From a virus (lineage: Duplodnaviria > Heunggongvirae > Uroviricota > Caudoviricetes): a DNA stretch of 64,000 bases. The notes below the pieces were generated by a model. It saw only the letters and a list, made by a program, of their open reading frames with translations, did no database searches and was not told where the DNA came from. Both the position numbers and the translations under genes were made by a program. Positions within the stretch are counted from its first letter, which is position 1, and every line of letters begins with the position of its first letter. Below are positions 3,452-22,927 of the stretch, in pieces. The stretch covers positions 3,554 through 67,553 of IMG/VR virus record IMGVR_UViG_2541047850_000005; one strand, given 5' to 3'.

Positions 3452-3604
3452 CACAACTCCGTAAACAACTTGTTTTCTCAATGTCGTAAATAATACCAGT
3501 AAGAAAACGGCTACAAAGCATATTGATCAGGTGCATGAGCGATATGCAGGTTCTTCCCTGCGGCTATAGAGAAATTAAGCCAGCAATGCTGGCTTTGGTT
3601 GGGA

Positions 3605-6322: not shown

Positions 6323-8356
6323 TTACTTAACCTGGTGACCAGGTTTAGCACCAGCATCCGGGCTTAACAGGAAGATATCTTTCCCACCAGGACCAGCAGC
6401 CATCACCATGCCTTCTGAGATACCGAAACGCATTTTACGCGGAGCCAGGTTAGCCACCATAATGGTGTGACGACCAATCAGTGCCTGTGGGTCTGGATAA
6501 GCAGAACGAATGCCGGAGAAGACATTACGCTTTTCCCCACCGAGATCCAGTGTCAGACGCAGCAGTTTGTCAGAGCCTTCAACAAACTCCGCGTTTTCAA
6601 TCAGCGCCACACGCAGGTCAACTTTGGCGAAGTCGTCAAAGGTGATGGTTTCCTGAATCGGGTCGTCAGCCAGTGGGCCAGTTACCGGTGCGGCTGTGGC
6701 TTTCACTTCTTCTTTGGATGCTTCCACCAGTGCTTCCACCTGTTTCATATCGATGCGGTTATACAGCGCCTTGAACGGATTCACTTTGTGGCCCAGCAGC
6801 GGTTGCTGGATACCATCCCAGGTCAGTTCTGTATTGAGGAATGCTTCTGCGCGCTCGGTCAGTTTCGGCAGTACCGGTTTCAGGTAAGTCATCAGCACGC
6901 GGAACAGGTTAATGCCCATAGAGCAAATCGCCTGCAGATCGGCATCGCGACCTTCCTGCTTCGCCACCACCCACGGAGCCTGTTCATCGACATAGCGGTT
7001 AGCCAGGTCAGCCAGTGCCATGATTTCACGGATAGCTTTACCAAATTCGCGGCTTTCCCATGCTTCGCCAATCACTTCAGCGGCATCAGTAAAGGTTTTG
7101 TACAGTTGCGGGTCAGCCAGTTCGCTTGCCAGCACGCCGTCAAAACGCTTGTTGATAAAGCCTGCATTACGGGAGGCCAGGTTAACCACTTTGTTCACGA
7201 TATCGGCATTCACTCGCTGAACGAAATCTTCCAGGTTGAGATCGATATCATCAATGCGCGAAGAGAGTTTCGCAGTGTAGTAGTAACGCAGGCTGTCGGC
7301 GTCAAAATGATTCAGCCAGGTGCTGGCTTTAATGAACGTGCCGCGAGACTTGGACATCTTCGCACCGTTCACCGTCACATAGCCATGAACAAACAGGTTG
7401 GTCGGCTTGCGGAAGTTGCTGCCTTCCAGCATGGCAGGCCAGAACAGGCTGTGGAAGTAAACGATATCTTTACCGATGAAGTGGTACAGCTCGGCGGTGG
7501 AGTCTTTCTTCCAGTATTCATCGAAGCTGGAGGTGTCGCCGCGTTTGTCGCACAGATTCTTGAAGGAACCCATGTAGCCAATCGGCGCGTCCAGCCAGAC
7601 GTAGAAATATTTGCCCGGCGCGTTCGGAATTTCAAAACCGAAATAAGGGGCGTCGCGGGAGATATCCCACTGTTGCAGGCCAGATTCAAACCACTCCTGC
7701 ATTTTATTTGCCACCTGCTCCTGCAACGCACCGCTGCGGGTCCATGCCTGCAGCATTTCGCTGAAAGAAGGCAGATCAAAGAAGAAGTGTTCGGAATCAC
7801 GCATTACCGGCGTAGCACCAGAAACTACCGATTTCGGCTCGATCAGTTCAGTCGGGCTGTAAGTCGCGCCGCAGACTTCACAGTTATCGCCGTATTGATC
7901 TGGCGCTTTACATTTAGGGCAGGTGCCTTTTACAAAACGGTCCGGCAGGAACATGCCTTTTTCCGGGTCGTATAACTGAGAGATGGTGCGGTTTTTAATA
8001 AAACCGTTCTCTTTCAGGCGAGTATAAATAAGCTCGGACAACTGACGGTTCTCTTCGCTGTGCGTCGAGTGATAGTTGTCATAGCTGATGTTAAAGCCTG
8101 CAAAATCAGTCTGGTGTTCCTGACTCATTTCGCCAATCATCTGTTCCGGTGTGATACCAAGCTGCTGTGCTTTCAGCATGATCGGTGTGCCGTGGGCATC
8201 GTCGGCACAGATGAAATTAACCTCGTGGCCGCGCATTCGCTGGTAACGAACCCAGACATCAGCCTGGATGTGCTCCAGCATATGGCCGAGGTGGATTGAG
8301 CCGTTAGCGTACGGCAGCGCGCACGTCACCAGAATTTTCTTCGCGACTTGGGTCAT
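6323..8356 (-). CDS. metG: methionine--tRNA ligase (MetG), E. coli-type
   Basis: 677 aa from [41 protein letters not shown]…; class I aaRS HIGH/KMSKS (KMSKS present), C-terminal tRNA-binding domain; from memory near-identical to E. coli MetG. The ORF track's 43-residue N-terminal extension (to 8485) is rejected. Confidence 0.95.
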
Positions 8357-8513: not shown

Positions 8514-9614
8514 ATGAGCGAGTCCAAATCGCCGGATGCCCTGAGAGCAATGGTAGCCGGTACGCTGGCTAATTTTCAGCACCCAACCCTGAAACACAAC
8601 CTGACTACGCTTAAAGCGTTACACCATGTTGCGTTGATGGATGACACACTGCATGTCGAACTAATCATGCCTTTCGTGTGGAATAAGCCTTTTGAAGACC
8701 TGAAAGAGCAATGTAGTGGTGATCTGCTCCGTATCACTGGCGCAAAGGCTATCGACTGGAAGCTGTCGTACAACATTGCCACGCTTAAGCGCGTCAAAAA
8801 CCAACCAGGCATTAATGGCGTTAAGAACATTATCGCCGTCAGCTCAGGCAAGGGCGGCGTTGGTAAATCCTCCACGGCGGTAAACCTGGCACTGGCGTTG
8901 GCTGCTGAAGGTGCGAAAGTTGGTATTTTGGATGCCGATATCTACGGGCCATCAATTCCAACCATGCTTGGCGCGGAAAACCAACGTCCAACCTCACCGG
9001 ACGGTACTCACATGGCACCGATTATGTCTCATGGACTGGCAACCAATTCAATTGGTTATCTGGTAACTGACGACAATGCGATGGTGTGGCGTGGTCCGAT
9101 GGCGAGCAAGGCGTTAATGCAGATGTTGCAGGAAACTCTATGGCCTGATCTGGACTATCTCGTTCTCGATATGCCGCCGGGTACTGGTGATATTCAGCTG
9201 ACGCTGGCGCAGAACATTCCTGTAACTGGTGCTGTTGTGGTAACTACGCCGCAAGATATCGCGCTGATCGATGCGAAGAAAGGCATTGTGATGTTCGAAA
9301 AAGTCGAAGTGCCGGTACTGGGTATCGTCGAAAACATGAGTGTGCATATTTGCAGTAACTGCGGTCATCACGAGCCAATTTTTGGCACCGGTGGCGCACA
9401 GAAACTGGCCGAGAAATACAACACGCAGTTGTTAGGCCAAATGCCACTTCATATCTCTCTTCGTGAAGATCTGGATAACGGAACACCAACCGTTATTAGT
9501 CGTCCAGATAGCGAATTTACGGCTATTTATCGTGACCTTGCAGATCGCGTTGCTGCCCAAATGTATTGGCAAGGTGAAGTAATACCTGGCGAAATCGCAT
9601 TCCGCGCAGTGTGA
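8514..9614 (+). CDS. apbC: Fe-S cluster carrier ATPase ApbC/Mrp
   Basis: 366 aa with Walker A SSGKGGVGKSSTAVNLA and CxxC (CSNCGHH) motif; divergent from metG as in the E. coli chromosome. Confidence 0.93.
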   Translation: MSESKSPDALRAMVAGTLANFQHPTLKHNLTTLKALHHVALMDDTLHVELIMPFVWNKPFEDLKEQCSGDLLRITGAKAIDWKLSYNIATLKRVKNQPGINGVKNIIAVSSGKGGVGKSSTAVNLALALAAEGAKVGILDADIYGPSIPTMLGAENQRPTSPDGTHMAPIMSHGLATNSIGYLVTDDNAMVWRGPMASKALMQMLQETLWPDLDYLVLDMPPGTGDIQLTLAQNIPVTGAVVVTTPQDIALIDAKKGIVMFEKVEVPVLGIVENMSVHICSNCGHHEPIFGTGGAQKLAEKYNTQLLGQMPLHISLREDLDNGTPTVISRPDSEFTAIYRDLADRVAAQMYWQGEVIPGEIAFRAV

Positions 9615-9651
9615 TAAAAAGGTGGTGCAATGCACCACCTAAACAGTTCTC

Positions 9652-10041
9652 CTACATCACAGGACAATCATCAAACTCGCCACTTCTTGCGTCGTTGATA
9701 ATGTGAGTGATCACACCAAACACGGCATTGCTGCCCGTGCATCCATCATCATCCTTTGGCAATGCTTCCTTCTTACCAGTTCTTAAATCCTCCAGATGCT
9801 GACGTGGATACTTCCGGTATCTTTTTACGCGATATTCCCCATCCAGAGCACATACAAGAAGAGATCCATCAACAGGAGTGAGTGAGGAATCGACCACCAG
9901 CAATGCACCCTGCAATATTCCCTCACGATGATGGCTATCAGCTGCCCTCAAGAAGTAGGTCGCTGAAGGATGTCTAATTATCTGCTGATCAAGAGAAATA
10001 CGGCTCTCAGCATAATCCGCCGCAGGAGAGGGGTACCCCAT
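9652..10041 (-). CDS. UmuD'-like S24 peptidase domain protein (N-terminally pre-truncated)
   Basis: MGYPSPAADYAESRISLDQQIIRHPSATYF… aligns with E. coli UmuD from Gly25 onward ([29 protein letters not shown]); Ser (DSH) and Lys (RVKR) of the catalytic dyad retained; in-frame stop 3 codons upstream of the ATG. Confidence 0.7.
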   Translation of the reverse strand: MGYPSPAADYAESRISLDQQIIRHPSATYFLRAADSHHREGILQGALLVVDSSLTPVDGSLLVCALDGEYRVKRYRKYPRQHLEDLRTGKKEALPKDDDGCTGSNAVFGVITHIINDARSGEFDDCPVM

Positions 10042-12849: not shown

Positions 12850-13034
12850 TAGGCAGCTCTCTCAACAACAAGCAATTCGTCGTAGTCATAATCAGTTTCG
12901 GAACCATCCGTACCGAACAGAGTCACTTTGTCATCTTCCATCCAAAAAGATTTAACCGCACATTGTTGACCTTTAGATGTTATGAGCACATCACCAGGGA
13001 TTACATCTTCAGCGCGAACTTCTAGTGTTCTCAT
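12849..13034 (-). CDS. hypothetical small protein (61 aa)
   Basis: ORF track; packed between coupled genes. Confidence 0.3.
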   Translation of the reverse strand: MRTLEVRAEDVIPGDVLITSKGQQCAVKSFWMEDDKVTLFGTDGSETDYDYDELLVVERAA

Positions 13035-13561
13035 CGTGCTGACCCCTCTTTGGTTAAAATGCCTGCTGCAATGCTGTTTATGATGCTGTCAGTGCATGGA
13101 GTAGAAAGCTGGGCATCTCCAGCAATTTTCATGACCTCAACATCCGCATATCGAATACCGAGGTGTATCAGACCGGCTATACCTGACTTAAGTCGAACAT
13201 TTTCCATAAACAGATCTTTTTCCCGCTGTTTAGCGGCTTCCAACTCCATCGACAATTTTTCCAACTGCTCTTTATGCTTCTTGTATTCCTGATACGCGTG
13301 CCAAGACTGACCTTTGCGCACACTATCAGTGATATCAGCAACCTGCTCCGGTGTTAGCGTGGTCAGTGGCTGTGCTGGAAAAATCATCACCTTCCCGGCA
13401 TCCCAATCAAAACCCGCCTGAATTGACTGAACCTCAACTGATGGTGTTGAACCGATGCGACCAGGCGAATGAACAACGATCGTTACATCCATATCGCGAC
13501 GATGGCTGTGGTTGTTGGACAAAATACGATTCACCAACTCAGAAAATTTGGAAAATTTCAT
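13031..13561 (-). CDS. hypothetical protein
   Basis: ORF 13031..13690 trimmed to MKFSKFS… which overlaps the upstream stop by 4 nt. Confidence 0.4.
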
Positions 13562-13881
13562 GCTGATCCCTCTTTTTCTCCCCGGATAATTCTGTTGCAC
13601 ACATCCACACACTCGTCGCAGATGAAAACGGCGTCCCCAGCAATTAACTTTTTGACGGCGTACTGGGATTTGTTGCAGAAGCTGCAACAAAGTGTTCGCC
13701 TGACTGATAAGGATGGAGCGCCAGATGTCAGCCGCTCCATATCGTTCTTGCGACGCAATATCACACGGCTGAACTCAACCAGTTTCTCCGGGGATATCTC
13801 CTCCTCCGTAGCAAGCGCCTCTAATCGTTCGAGTATGTGGAAGGCTTTTTTCTGGGTAATTGCAGAATGCGATGTGGTCAT
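13558..13881 (-). CDS. stand-alone ClpX-type zinc-binding domain (C4 zinc finger) protein
   Basis: …[36 protein letters not shown]… matches the ClpX N-terminal ZBD ([36 protein letters not shown]); no AAA+ module follows; start taken at MTTSHS after an AAGGAG SD. Confidence 0.6.
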
Positions 13882-13882
13882 C

Positions 13883-14413
13883 TCACTCTCCTTTGATGCG
13901 AATGCCAGCGGCGCGGGAATCATTCCATCGCTTTACTTCTTCACGAATTACGTCAATGCATTCTTTCGAATCCATTAGGTAATCTTCATCAAAAAGACGT
14001 TCCTGTTCGTTTTCTATCGCAACAATGATTGCTTCAACTAACTTTTGTGCCTGAGAATCACTTTCTAACTCTGCTATGCGCTTACTTCCATCCGAGATAA
14101 CGCCCTCGTAATACTCACGCTGCTCGTTGAGTTTTGATTTTGCCAACTCCAGTTGTTTTGTTAGTTCCGCAATACGGCAAACATCGTTGATACGCGTTTC
14201 CTCTAATGCGTTGATCTCATCCAGTAGTGCCAGCACGGTTTCTGGTCCGGCCAGAAATTTGAAGGCGTTGAGGGCATCAATATCAACACCGCTATCTTTA
14301 AGTTCCTGTTCACTTAACAAGTCATCATCAGCTGGCAACATTAACAGGCGTTCCATTGCTGGAATTGCACGTTCCGCCACCTCACGCAGTGCCTGGTAAT
14401 TAATTTCGCTCAC
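13883..14413 (-). CDS. hypothetical protein (coiled-coil-like, 176 aa)
   Basis: ORF track. Confidence 0.45.
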
Positions 14414-15157: not shown

Positions 15158-15295
15158 GTGTTTTTCTCTTCTTTGCTGTTACATAAGCACTACCAAGTGC
15201 TGGTTTATTTTCACAAATAAGAAAATGTAGAAAACAATTTATTTAAGGCCACAACTTATGGCCTTTATTTATTCATGCCGAAGGATTTGTAGCGT

Positions 15296-22005: not shown

Positions 22006-22588
22006 TAAACTCCTGAATCAAGCGCCGCGCCGATTTTTTTTTCCTCGCGCGTGCGCACACGCGTGCGTGTTAATAATTATTAAAATAAACAAATTACTTC
22101 CCAGAACAGGTTTTTATAAACCTGAACTGAACGAACGAAGTGAGTGAAGTTCACCTCGAACGAAGTGAGAGGTTGTCTTTTCAGGTAATACTCTCCCAGG
22201 GAGGTGAGTATAAAATTCCTCACCAACCTGGTCGTTTCATAACCTGAAAAGTTATGGTCTAAGTCTACTGCCAGCTTAGACTTGGGAAGTTATGGATGAC
22301 AGCACCCCAGAACCGAGATCTTCCCACACTTTATGAAGGGGAGTACTGGATTCAACCTCTCGAAACACCCCAGACTCGACAATCATAAAGTGACCCTTGT
22401 CTCTGCTCACTTTGGTTCCCCCTTCCCCGACACCTAAACGGCACCGGTTCTACGCTGGTAGTGAGCTTTTTAAACCTGACGCCAGTGACGCTTACCCCCA
22501 CCCATCAGGTCGAGCCTCCAGTCTACGACTGGAAACAATCAGATCTTAGCACTTACAATTCACTTTATGAATAGTTTGTACTTATCTA
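22006..22588 (-). other. ORF-free, structure-rich segment (candidate non-coding RNA)
   Basis: About 580 bp with no ORF of 60 aa or more on either strand in a densely packed region; several hairpins and tandem GAACGAAGTGAG repeats. Confidence 0.3.
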
Positions 22589-22843
22589 TCATTGTGATTG
22601 ATTATTTTCTCGACCATGTAGTTGAACATTCAAGGCAAACACCTCATTGATCAACTCACCTAAAAGCTGTTCAACAAGTTCGCGATGCTCCCCAAGATGC
22701 AAGCACTTAATTGCCCATTCGTACAAGTTGAAAGCCTGCTCTCGATCTTTCATCATTTCACGAGCCTTAGCCAGAAAATCGCTCTCTACGAGCGCAACGA
22801 CATTAGTCGGGTATGACATGTTGGTTTCCTTAAAGTGGTTCAT
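22589..22843 (-). CDS. hypothetical small protein (84 aa)
   Basis: ORF track. Confidence 0.4.
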   Translation of the reverse strand: MNHFKETNMSYPTNVVALVESDFLAKAREMMKDREQAFNLYEWAIKCLHLGEHRELVEQLLGELINEVFALNVQLHGRENNQSQ

Positions 22844-22927
22844 AAAATCGATTTTAAAGCGTCTGGGAAGGGGGTCTAGTGGATTCTGTAGTGATGTTCA
22901 GGTCTGGGAGTCTCTGATACAAAACAG

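Follow-up and report, generated by a model that had tools for sequence, protein, structure and literature searches.

A stand-alone ClpX-type zinc-binding domain paired with a conserved helical hairpin in temperate enterobacterial phages: a putative decoy for ligands of host ClpX

The window analysed here is a 64,000-nucleotide stretch of a Caudoviricetes virus (IMG/VR record IMGVR_UViG_2541047850_000005, positions 3,554 to 67,553), an element which by its gene content is a putative SSU5-like phage-plasmid. Its minus strand carries a gene for a small protein (the ZBD protein) that combines a zinc-binding domain (ZBD) of the ClpX type with an N-terminal helical hairpin specific to its family. 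We suggest, with a probability of about 0.4, that this protein may serve as a decoy for the ligands of the host ClpX N-domain (SspB, RssB, UmuD, λO, MuA, and FtsZ), which is the best-supported mechanism for a protein known to us from its sequence and predicted fold.

Results

The coding sequence for the ZBD protein (107 amino acids, aa) is located at 13558..13881 on the minus strand, as follows from the list of open reading frames and the sequence itself, with the ATG start at 13881 and the TGA stop ending at 13558. The product is 100% identical to XSB42465.1 of Escherichia phage PhiR41_1 (coding sequence 22534-22857) and is matched over its full length by phrog_6797 in the PHROGs search (E=2.9e-58). 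The preliminary description of this DNA had proposed that 13558-13881 encodes a protein whose C-terminal part is a ClpX ZBD free of any AAA+ module, and that such a protein could be a decoy or inhibitor of host ClpXP. Profile, sequence and fold evidence confirms the domain, while the minus-strand orientation and the conserved hairpin preceding the domain had been missed.

The ZBD occupies residues 62-102 (13576..13698, minus strand), and its zinc ligands C66, C69, C88, and C91 correspond to C14, C17, C36, and C39 of ClpX. The Pfam comparison proposed in the same description identified zf-C4_ClpX (PF06689) at E=1.3e-15 and 57.4 bits against a cut-off of 27, the match covering residues 65-100 and profile positions 2-38 of 39. 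The C-x2-C-x18-C-x2-C zinc site is invariant in the family alignment and in all 42 distinct cores of family members that were compared. Identity to residues 11-51 of E. coli ClpX is about 70%, reaching 72% over a 39-aa core, and phmmer matched the E. coli ClpX ZBD entries 2ds5 and 1ovx among the PDB sequences at E=1e-14. In the AlphaFold2 model (predicted local distance difference test score, pLDDT, 74 overall and 77-86 within the ZBD), the domain adopts the treble-clef ββα fold of the solved ZBD and superposes on 2ds7, 2ds6, and 2ds5 at 0.5-0.6 Å. The NCBIfam ClpX equivalogs NF003745 and TIGR00382 score only 41.9 and 39.7 bits (cut-offs 359 and 370.75), aligning at profile positions 4-48 only, and the protein terminates 5 residues past the aligned ZBD; therefore it has no AAA+ module, just as had been supposed before.

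Comparison of the ZBD, position by position, with eight ClpX ZBDs showed that the family keeps the four Cys together with ClpX residues F16, K19, Q21, V24, I28, G30, V33, I35, E38, V40, N44, and I47. The position of ClpX I46 is hydrophobic throughout: the window protein and members of the P2 type have I there, and V prevails in the lambdoid type. The ZBD helix of the P2 branch is still ClpX-like. We infer that the fold and the dimerisation of the domain are those of the ClpX N-domain and that the hydrophobic ligand pocket is retained.

The N-terminal hairpin (residues 9-52; 13726..13857, minus strand) is supported by the AlphaFold2 model, conservation, exhaustive phmmer searching and the ratio of nonsynonymous to synonymous substitution rates (dN/dS). 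Its helices are predicted at residues 10-26 and 31-52 (pLDDT 72-86), and it is joined to the ZBD by a Ser/Gly/Pro-rich linker of low confidence (residues 53-61; 13699..13725, minus strand; pLDDT <50 at residues 56-60), which differs in length and sequence between two subfamilies. These subfamilies, starting with “MTTSH...” in lambdoid and plasmid elements and with “MQHIDREKAQ...” in P2-like phages, are about 42% identical. Since ten hairpin residues (K12, R19, E21, A24, E26, E27, R43, R44, D47, and L51) are invariant across both of them, the pattern points to a conserved surface for interaction or to the core of a dimer.

The exhaustive phmmer search with the first 60 residues against 1.8 billion representative proteins gave 9 matches, comprising the two subfamilies, their truncated pseudogene forms and a single protein from outside the family, P0122 (E=6.6e-5). 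The hairpin was thus found in no other architecture, save for P0122. The hairpin profile found no relative in the GTDB species-representative genomes, and the fold search with the hairpin returned generic helical hairpins only. In IMG/VR, the profile detected 72 loci in viral contigs, coding for 41 distinct proteins, and every protein uncut by a contig end has both the hairpin and the Cys pattern of the zinc site; hence the two parts are an obligate pair. Being obligate, family-specific and more constrained than the ZBD, the hairpin makes the protein more than a free ZBD.

P0122 is a eukaryote-like protein of 650 aa with six BAG-domain stretches and, faintly, a match to the ubiquitin family (Pfam E=0.17); it represents a weak lead. 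Similarity between the hairpin family and its BAG repeats is also weak (hhalign probability 64.7% over 51 columns), and the ZBD protein itself gave nothing with Pfam BAG (PF02179) even at E<=10. BAG domains bind Hsp70, so a DnaK connection of the hairpin is conceivable but unsupported. In some family members (P0005, P0007, P0018, and P0023; loci L043-L045), the first 7 residues, MTTSHSA, are swapped for a 20-residue N-terminus, MKSEGLTPAQLAERNAEL(P/L)R, which is another mosaic joint placed just 5' of the first hairpin helix.

Searching 5.8 billion proteins revealed full-length relatives of 102-121 aa (identity 63-97%) in about 30 clusters, which belong to Escherichia or Salmonella wherever an organism is named; weaker matches from the protein databases have only the ZBD in common with the family. 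By blastn, the gene was found in 220 of the 5,426 complete E. coli genomes (about 4%), at 127 chromosomal and 106 plasmid places, host clpX being missed because its DNA similarity is too low. Among 50,697 phage records, the full-length protein is present only in PhiR41_1, CMS-2020a, the P1-like plasmid-prophage D6 (orf93), the P2-like P88 (gp19), and PhiR44_2. In the phage-plasmids (SSU5-like and P1-like), the gene lies between Ea22-like genes, in arrays of small early accessory genes. In the other two contexts, it belongs to the early operon and comes after the replication genes: P2-like prophages, including that of UTI89, have it right after the genes for the replication endonuclease, ParM and a partition protein, and a lambdoid prophage has a copy of 100% identity, flanked by the replication genes and rusA. 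The gene is therefore accessory and mobile among temperate enterobacterial phages, of which four kinds carry it: SSU5-like, P1-like, P2-like, and lambdoid.

The preliminary description had left it unsure whether such a protein was already described. The family is catalogued, under the RefSeq name “ClpX C4-type zinc finger protein” and as phrog_6797, listed in PHROGs as of function unknown (older records use the spurious name “carboxylate--amine ligase”), and our literature search found no functional study of a phage-encoded or stand-alone ClpX ZBD. In two IMG/VR loci (L022, 4001-4849, and L037, 3941-4822), the reading frame shifts just behind the CDEC motif, so that the ZBD gene runs on into the gene downstream, and the fused products of 282 and 285 aa have lost the ZBD helix. 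Truncated copies of the P2 type also occur (P0123, P0125, and P0126). The gene is dispensable in some lineages.

By the Nei-Gojobori method, pairwise dN/dS of the hairpin is 0.2-0.4 and that of the ZBD, calculated from few sites, is 0.2-1.15. Most comparisons remain below 1, and purifying selection acts on both halves. At the protein level, phage ZBDs of the lambdoid type share 72% and those of the P2 type 79% identity with the product of E. coli K-12 clpX, with a DNA identity of 62-67% and saturated synonymous sites. A recent capture from host clpX is ruled out by these DNA values, and the saturation of synonymous sites, combined with the retained protein identity, indicates an old acquisition held by selection.

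Upstream of the ZBD gene, at 13883..14413 on the minus strand, lies an Ead/Ea22-like gene (Pfam Ead_Ea22, E=7.6e-24), which is the usual neighbour in the lambdoid/plasmid subfamily, being directly upstream in 28 of the 35 lambdoid-type IMG/VR loci. A GGAG ribosome-binding site, read from the sequence, is situated 6 nt 5' of the ZBD-gene ATG (13888..13891, minus strand), within the 3' end of this gene. Since the Ea22-like gene stops 1 nt from the ZBD-gene start, the TGA of the ZBD gene overlaps the ATG of the next gene (ATGA) and the GGAG site is present, we consider the ZBD gene to be translationally coupled in a long run of small minus-strand genes. A longer version of the gene, with 121 codons and a start at 13923, was rejected: it overlaps the upstream gene, is unused in the PhiR41_1 GenBank record, and is disfavoured by the conserved N-terminus of the family.

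The downstream gene (176 aa; 13031..13561, minus strand), whose ATG forms this overlap, has an N-terminal part of about 105 aa that corresponds to phrog_6026 and has no Pfam match. This part follows the ZBD gene in nearly identical form in at least 28 of the 35 lambdoid-type loci, and the C-terminus is swapped among Ea22-like, DUF551-containing and other ends, resulting in total lengths of 173-310 aa (loci L012-L045); the recombination joint appears to be within a coiled-coil segment. Co-travel of the Ea22-like gene and the downstream N-terminus in the lambdoid branch may simply reflect mosaic recombination joints. No partner gene is conserved in all contexts, as the two subfamilies have unrelated genes downstream and the neighbours vary by phage type. 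The ZBD gene is set among Ea22-, EaA-, and Eae-like, DUF551 and DUF7446 genes, which are of a type that lambdoid phages have in their ea and nin regions. The cassette shows no composition anomaly, and neither the ZBD protein nor either flanking protein was matched in PADLOC-DB at E<=0.01.

The accessory-gene run holding the ZBD gene (about 15157 down to 9652) probably ends at a terminator-like hairpin at 9620..9640 on the minus strand (9-bp stem with 6 G-C pairs, followed by a T-run), located by consensus scan and gene order, because the scan revealed no earlier strong terminator-like hairpin on this strand of the run. The scan found no sigma-70 consensus promoter for the run on the minus strand, and for this reason the operon boundaries are putative. 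The 138-nt gap 5' of the first ea-like gene (15158-15295) contains a palindromic hairpin at 15245-15265, AAGGCCACAACTTATGGCCTT, and no minus-strand sigma-70 consensus.

The last gene of the run (9652-10041, minus strand) encodes a 129-aa S24 peptidase/UmuD-like protein. Its start, MGYPSPAADYAE, corresponds to the position just past the Cys24/Gly25 self-cleavage site of E. coli UmuD, and therefore the protein represents a ready-processed UmuD'-like form, which we take to be comparable to P1 HumD. UmuD' reaches ClpXP via UmuD docked on the ClpX N-domain; one can speculate that a ZBD decoy from the same operon could protect the UmuD'-like protein. The loci examined from P2-like and lambdoid elements have no UmuD homologue near the ZBD gene.

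Over 1.9 kb around the ZBD gene, the sequence is 99.9% identical to PhiR41_1 (PV340561.1), a circular genome of 108 kb, and about 97-100% identical to the “phage CMS-2020a” records and to E. coli plasmids of 106-113 kb. PhiR41_1 is annotated with ribonucleotide reductase, thymidylate synthase, dihydrofolate reductase, RNase HI, methionyl-tRNA synthetase and a UmuD-like protein. The related phage Cyrano is without the stretch containing the ZBD gene, which makes this gene accessory. In the window, 6323-8356 (minus strand) encodes a full-length methionyl-tRNA synthetase of 677 aa (Pfam tRNA-synt_1g, E=4e-166, with the anticodon-binding and C-terminal tRNA_bind domains), which is an unusual cargo for a temperate phage. 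Between this gene and the UmuD'-like one, on the opposite strand (8514-9614, plus), lies a gene for a P-loop ATPase of the Mrp/ApbC/NUBPL type, belonging to the iron-sulfur cluster carrier family (PF10609, E=2e-102).

Discussion

ClpXP sets the stability of λO, MuA, the P1 Phd antitoxin, cleaved-repressor fragments, UmuD', RpoS, and FtsZ, and most of its selectivity for these substrates passes through the N-terminal zinc domain. The purified ZBD reportedly binds λO and SspB and inhibits λO degradation in trans. The ClpX N-domain dimerises as an independent unit (PMC5415555; its dimerisation is described also in PMC7804408). UmuD, MuA, λO, and FtsZ are bound by it directly, SspB docks on it via the XB tail, and an XB peptide placed on the SspB site inhibits the degradation of λO and FtsZ (PMC3983244). 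Degradation of λO requires the ZBD. [quoted passage not shown]

We suppose that the phage ZBD is expressed early in phage development and would then compete with ClpX’s own N-domains for their docking proteins. The titrated proteins would include the adaptors SspB, RssB, and UmuD, as well as such substrates as λO-type replication initiators, MuA and FtsZ. In this way, N-domain-dependent ClpXP proteolysis would be selectively dampened, leaving direct degradation of ssrA-tagged proteins largely intact, and the phage protein may divert ClpX clients. The hairpin might reinforce the dimer by building a four-helix bundle, or it might provide a second host contact that is conserved. Such a decoy is plausible because the core ZBD residues including F16 are kept, the I46 position remains hydrophobic, and the gene has an early-operon position in four kinds of temperate phages.

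Several observations weigh against the decoy function. The binding of ClpX ligands is a property which we only infer. In the lambdoid/plasmid branch, to which the window copy belongs, the ClpX-invariant P31 is replaced by D or E, and the helix surface varies (ClpX D41 to E/D/K, L42 to V/A/D/L, D45 to R/N/E/S, and I46 to V/I). Since these positions vary and the dN/dS of the ZBD reaches 0.5-1.15 in close pairs (calculated from few sites), the ligand specificity of this branch may have drifted from that of ClpX. The window’s ZBD is nearer to acidobacterial-type ClpX fragments (83% identity) than to E. coli ClpX (72%), for which reason host-specific mimicry is not supported for this branch. Moreover, the hairpin is under tighter constraint than the ZBD, and a pure decoy leaves this obligate, strongly conserved part of the protein unexplained. 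The diverged pocket rim of the lambdoid type and the unexplained hairpin are among the reasons why we give the decoy no more than the probability stated above.

A broader arrangement, which we regard as possible although doubtful, is that the long-established phage ZBD and its private hairpin act together. The hairpin would hold on to a host protein that is conserved, and the ZBD would engage the ClpX network through sequestration of adaptors and N-domain-dependent substrates or through pairing with the ClpX N-domain, so that the targets of ClpXP would be rewritten early in infection or induction. In this case, phage replication proteins or SOS-mutagenesis proteins might be spared, for example, the UmuD'-like protein of the same operon; antitoxins might be stabilised, which would defuse abortive infection; or ClpXP might be redirected onto a host factor. 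Perhaps, however, the hairpin itself is the real effector, acting outside ClpXP proteolysis on a conserved protein of the host or the phage (for instance, a chaperone, a regulator or a protein of cell division), and the ZBD has been repurposed as a binding or dimerising module; we lean against this explanation without discarding it. It agrees with the stronger constraint on the hairpin half (dN/dS 0.2-0.4), with the invariance of its charged residues across subfamilies of such low identity, and with the variable ZBD helix surface and the lost Pro31 in the lambdoid branch. Treble-clef zinc fingers are generic interaction modules, and the weak resemblance of the hairpin to the Hsp70-binding BAG repeats of P0122 (Pfam BAG in that protein; hhalign 65%) would fit a role outside ClpXP as well.

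Direct targeting of ClpX is, in our estimate, rather improbable. Here the phage ZBD would heterodimerise with the N-domain of new ClpX subunits, either poisoning this domain or using the hairpin to tether a host protein, such as a defence factor, for destruction. Hydrophobic core positions are common to the phage ZBD and ClpX, and an obligate second domain with a conserved surface suits the design of a two-handed adaptor; dimerisation of the ClpX ZBD itself is established (PMC7804408, PMC5415555). However, the C-terminus of the protein reads ...RGEKEGSA, and an XB-like motif for tethering is absent from it. The ClpX ZBD dimer is also said to be very stable and constitutive, and on such stability subunit exchange is unlikely. 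The idea that the gene is a decaying remnant of a captured clpX 5' end without function could be prompted by the truncated and frameshifted copies (P0123-P0126; fusions L022 and L037) and by the spurious names given to the family, such as carboxylate--amine ligase. The conservation data contradict this idea and, in our opinion, already refute it in effect. They comprise 41 different proteins, all intact, from 72 viral contigs and about 30 protein-database clusters, an architecture kept over two subfamilies with saturated synonymous divergence and dN/dS <1, an intact ribosome-binding site and translational coupling, and the presence of the gene in four unrelated phage backbones.

Considered as a decoy, the phage protein has its model in the ClpX N-domain, with which it shares the fold, the C-x2-C-x18-C-x2-C site and the pocket core (F16 invariant, position 46 I or V). 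The ClpX domain differs in being attached to the ATPase, in lacking the 55-aa helical hairpin of the phage protein and in keeping Pro31. Other phage proteins likewise carry an isolated PF06689 domain without the ATPase: phrog_12435, labelled “protease”, phrog_5259, and proteins of Caulobacter phage Cr30, Bacillus phage G (gp258), and Pseudomonas phage PP9W2; the same is true for many ZBD-only proteins of 60-190 aa from metagenomes. These other phage proteins are uncharacterised and match by the ZBD alone, without the family hairpin. Besides phrog_6797, of unknown function, the PHROG matches of the window protein are such ZBD-only families, with no annotated protease-inhibitor family among them. 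A relation to SspB-like adaptors was not supported either, since Pfam, NCBIfam and inspection of the C-terminus revealed no SspB-like domain and no LRVVK-type C-terminal motif.

Functionally, a comparable point of competition is that of the RssB anti-adaptors IraD, IraM, and IraP and of the XB peptide, which compete at the interface between adaptors and the ClpX N-domain and cause selective substrate shifts (PMC3983244). A decoy would likewise change ClpXP activity selectively rather than globally, and the likeness is a functional analogy only: anti-adaptors have unrelated folds and bind to the adaptor, and XB fills the ZBD pocket, whereas the phage protein would offer a surplus ZBD pocket. 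If this is true, the free-standing ZBD would present a ready-made selective tool for splitting N-domain-dependent from N-domain-independent ClpXP functions in vivo. If the ZBD only scaffolds the hairpin, the gene would be one more accessory gene of the ea/nin-type regions.

Phages are able to blunt host proteases by other means. For example, λ RexB blocks the ClpP-dependent degradation of λO and antitoxins. Together with this block on ClpP, T4 PinA and T7 gp4.5 are known as phage blocks on Lon (PMC10286901; also via PMC11077077). Like the ZBD protein, all three are small phage accessory proteins, and the consequence, a stabilisation of phage or host proteins, would be the same if the decoy model is right, although they have no sequence relation to it and are not copies of a protease domain. 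Mimicry of the protease’s own docking domain, which is undescribed for PinA, gp4.5 or RexB, is proposed here for the ZBD protein; if correct, this would be the first phage interference with a host AAA+ protease by copying its substrate-docking module.

A further parallel is provided by Rki of the T4-like phage RB43, a stand-alone J-domain protein which reprogrammes DnaK and stabilises σ32 (PMC3486835). Rki belongs to another chaperone system and contains another domain, and its activity has been shown by experiment, while that of the ZBD protein is deduced from its features. Nevertheless, both consist of or include a single isolated domain from a family of host proteostasis cofactors, and Rki represents the nearest conceptual analogue of the ZBD protein.
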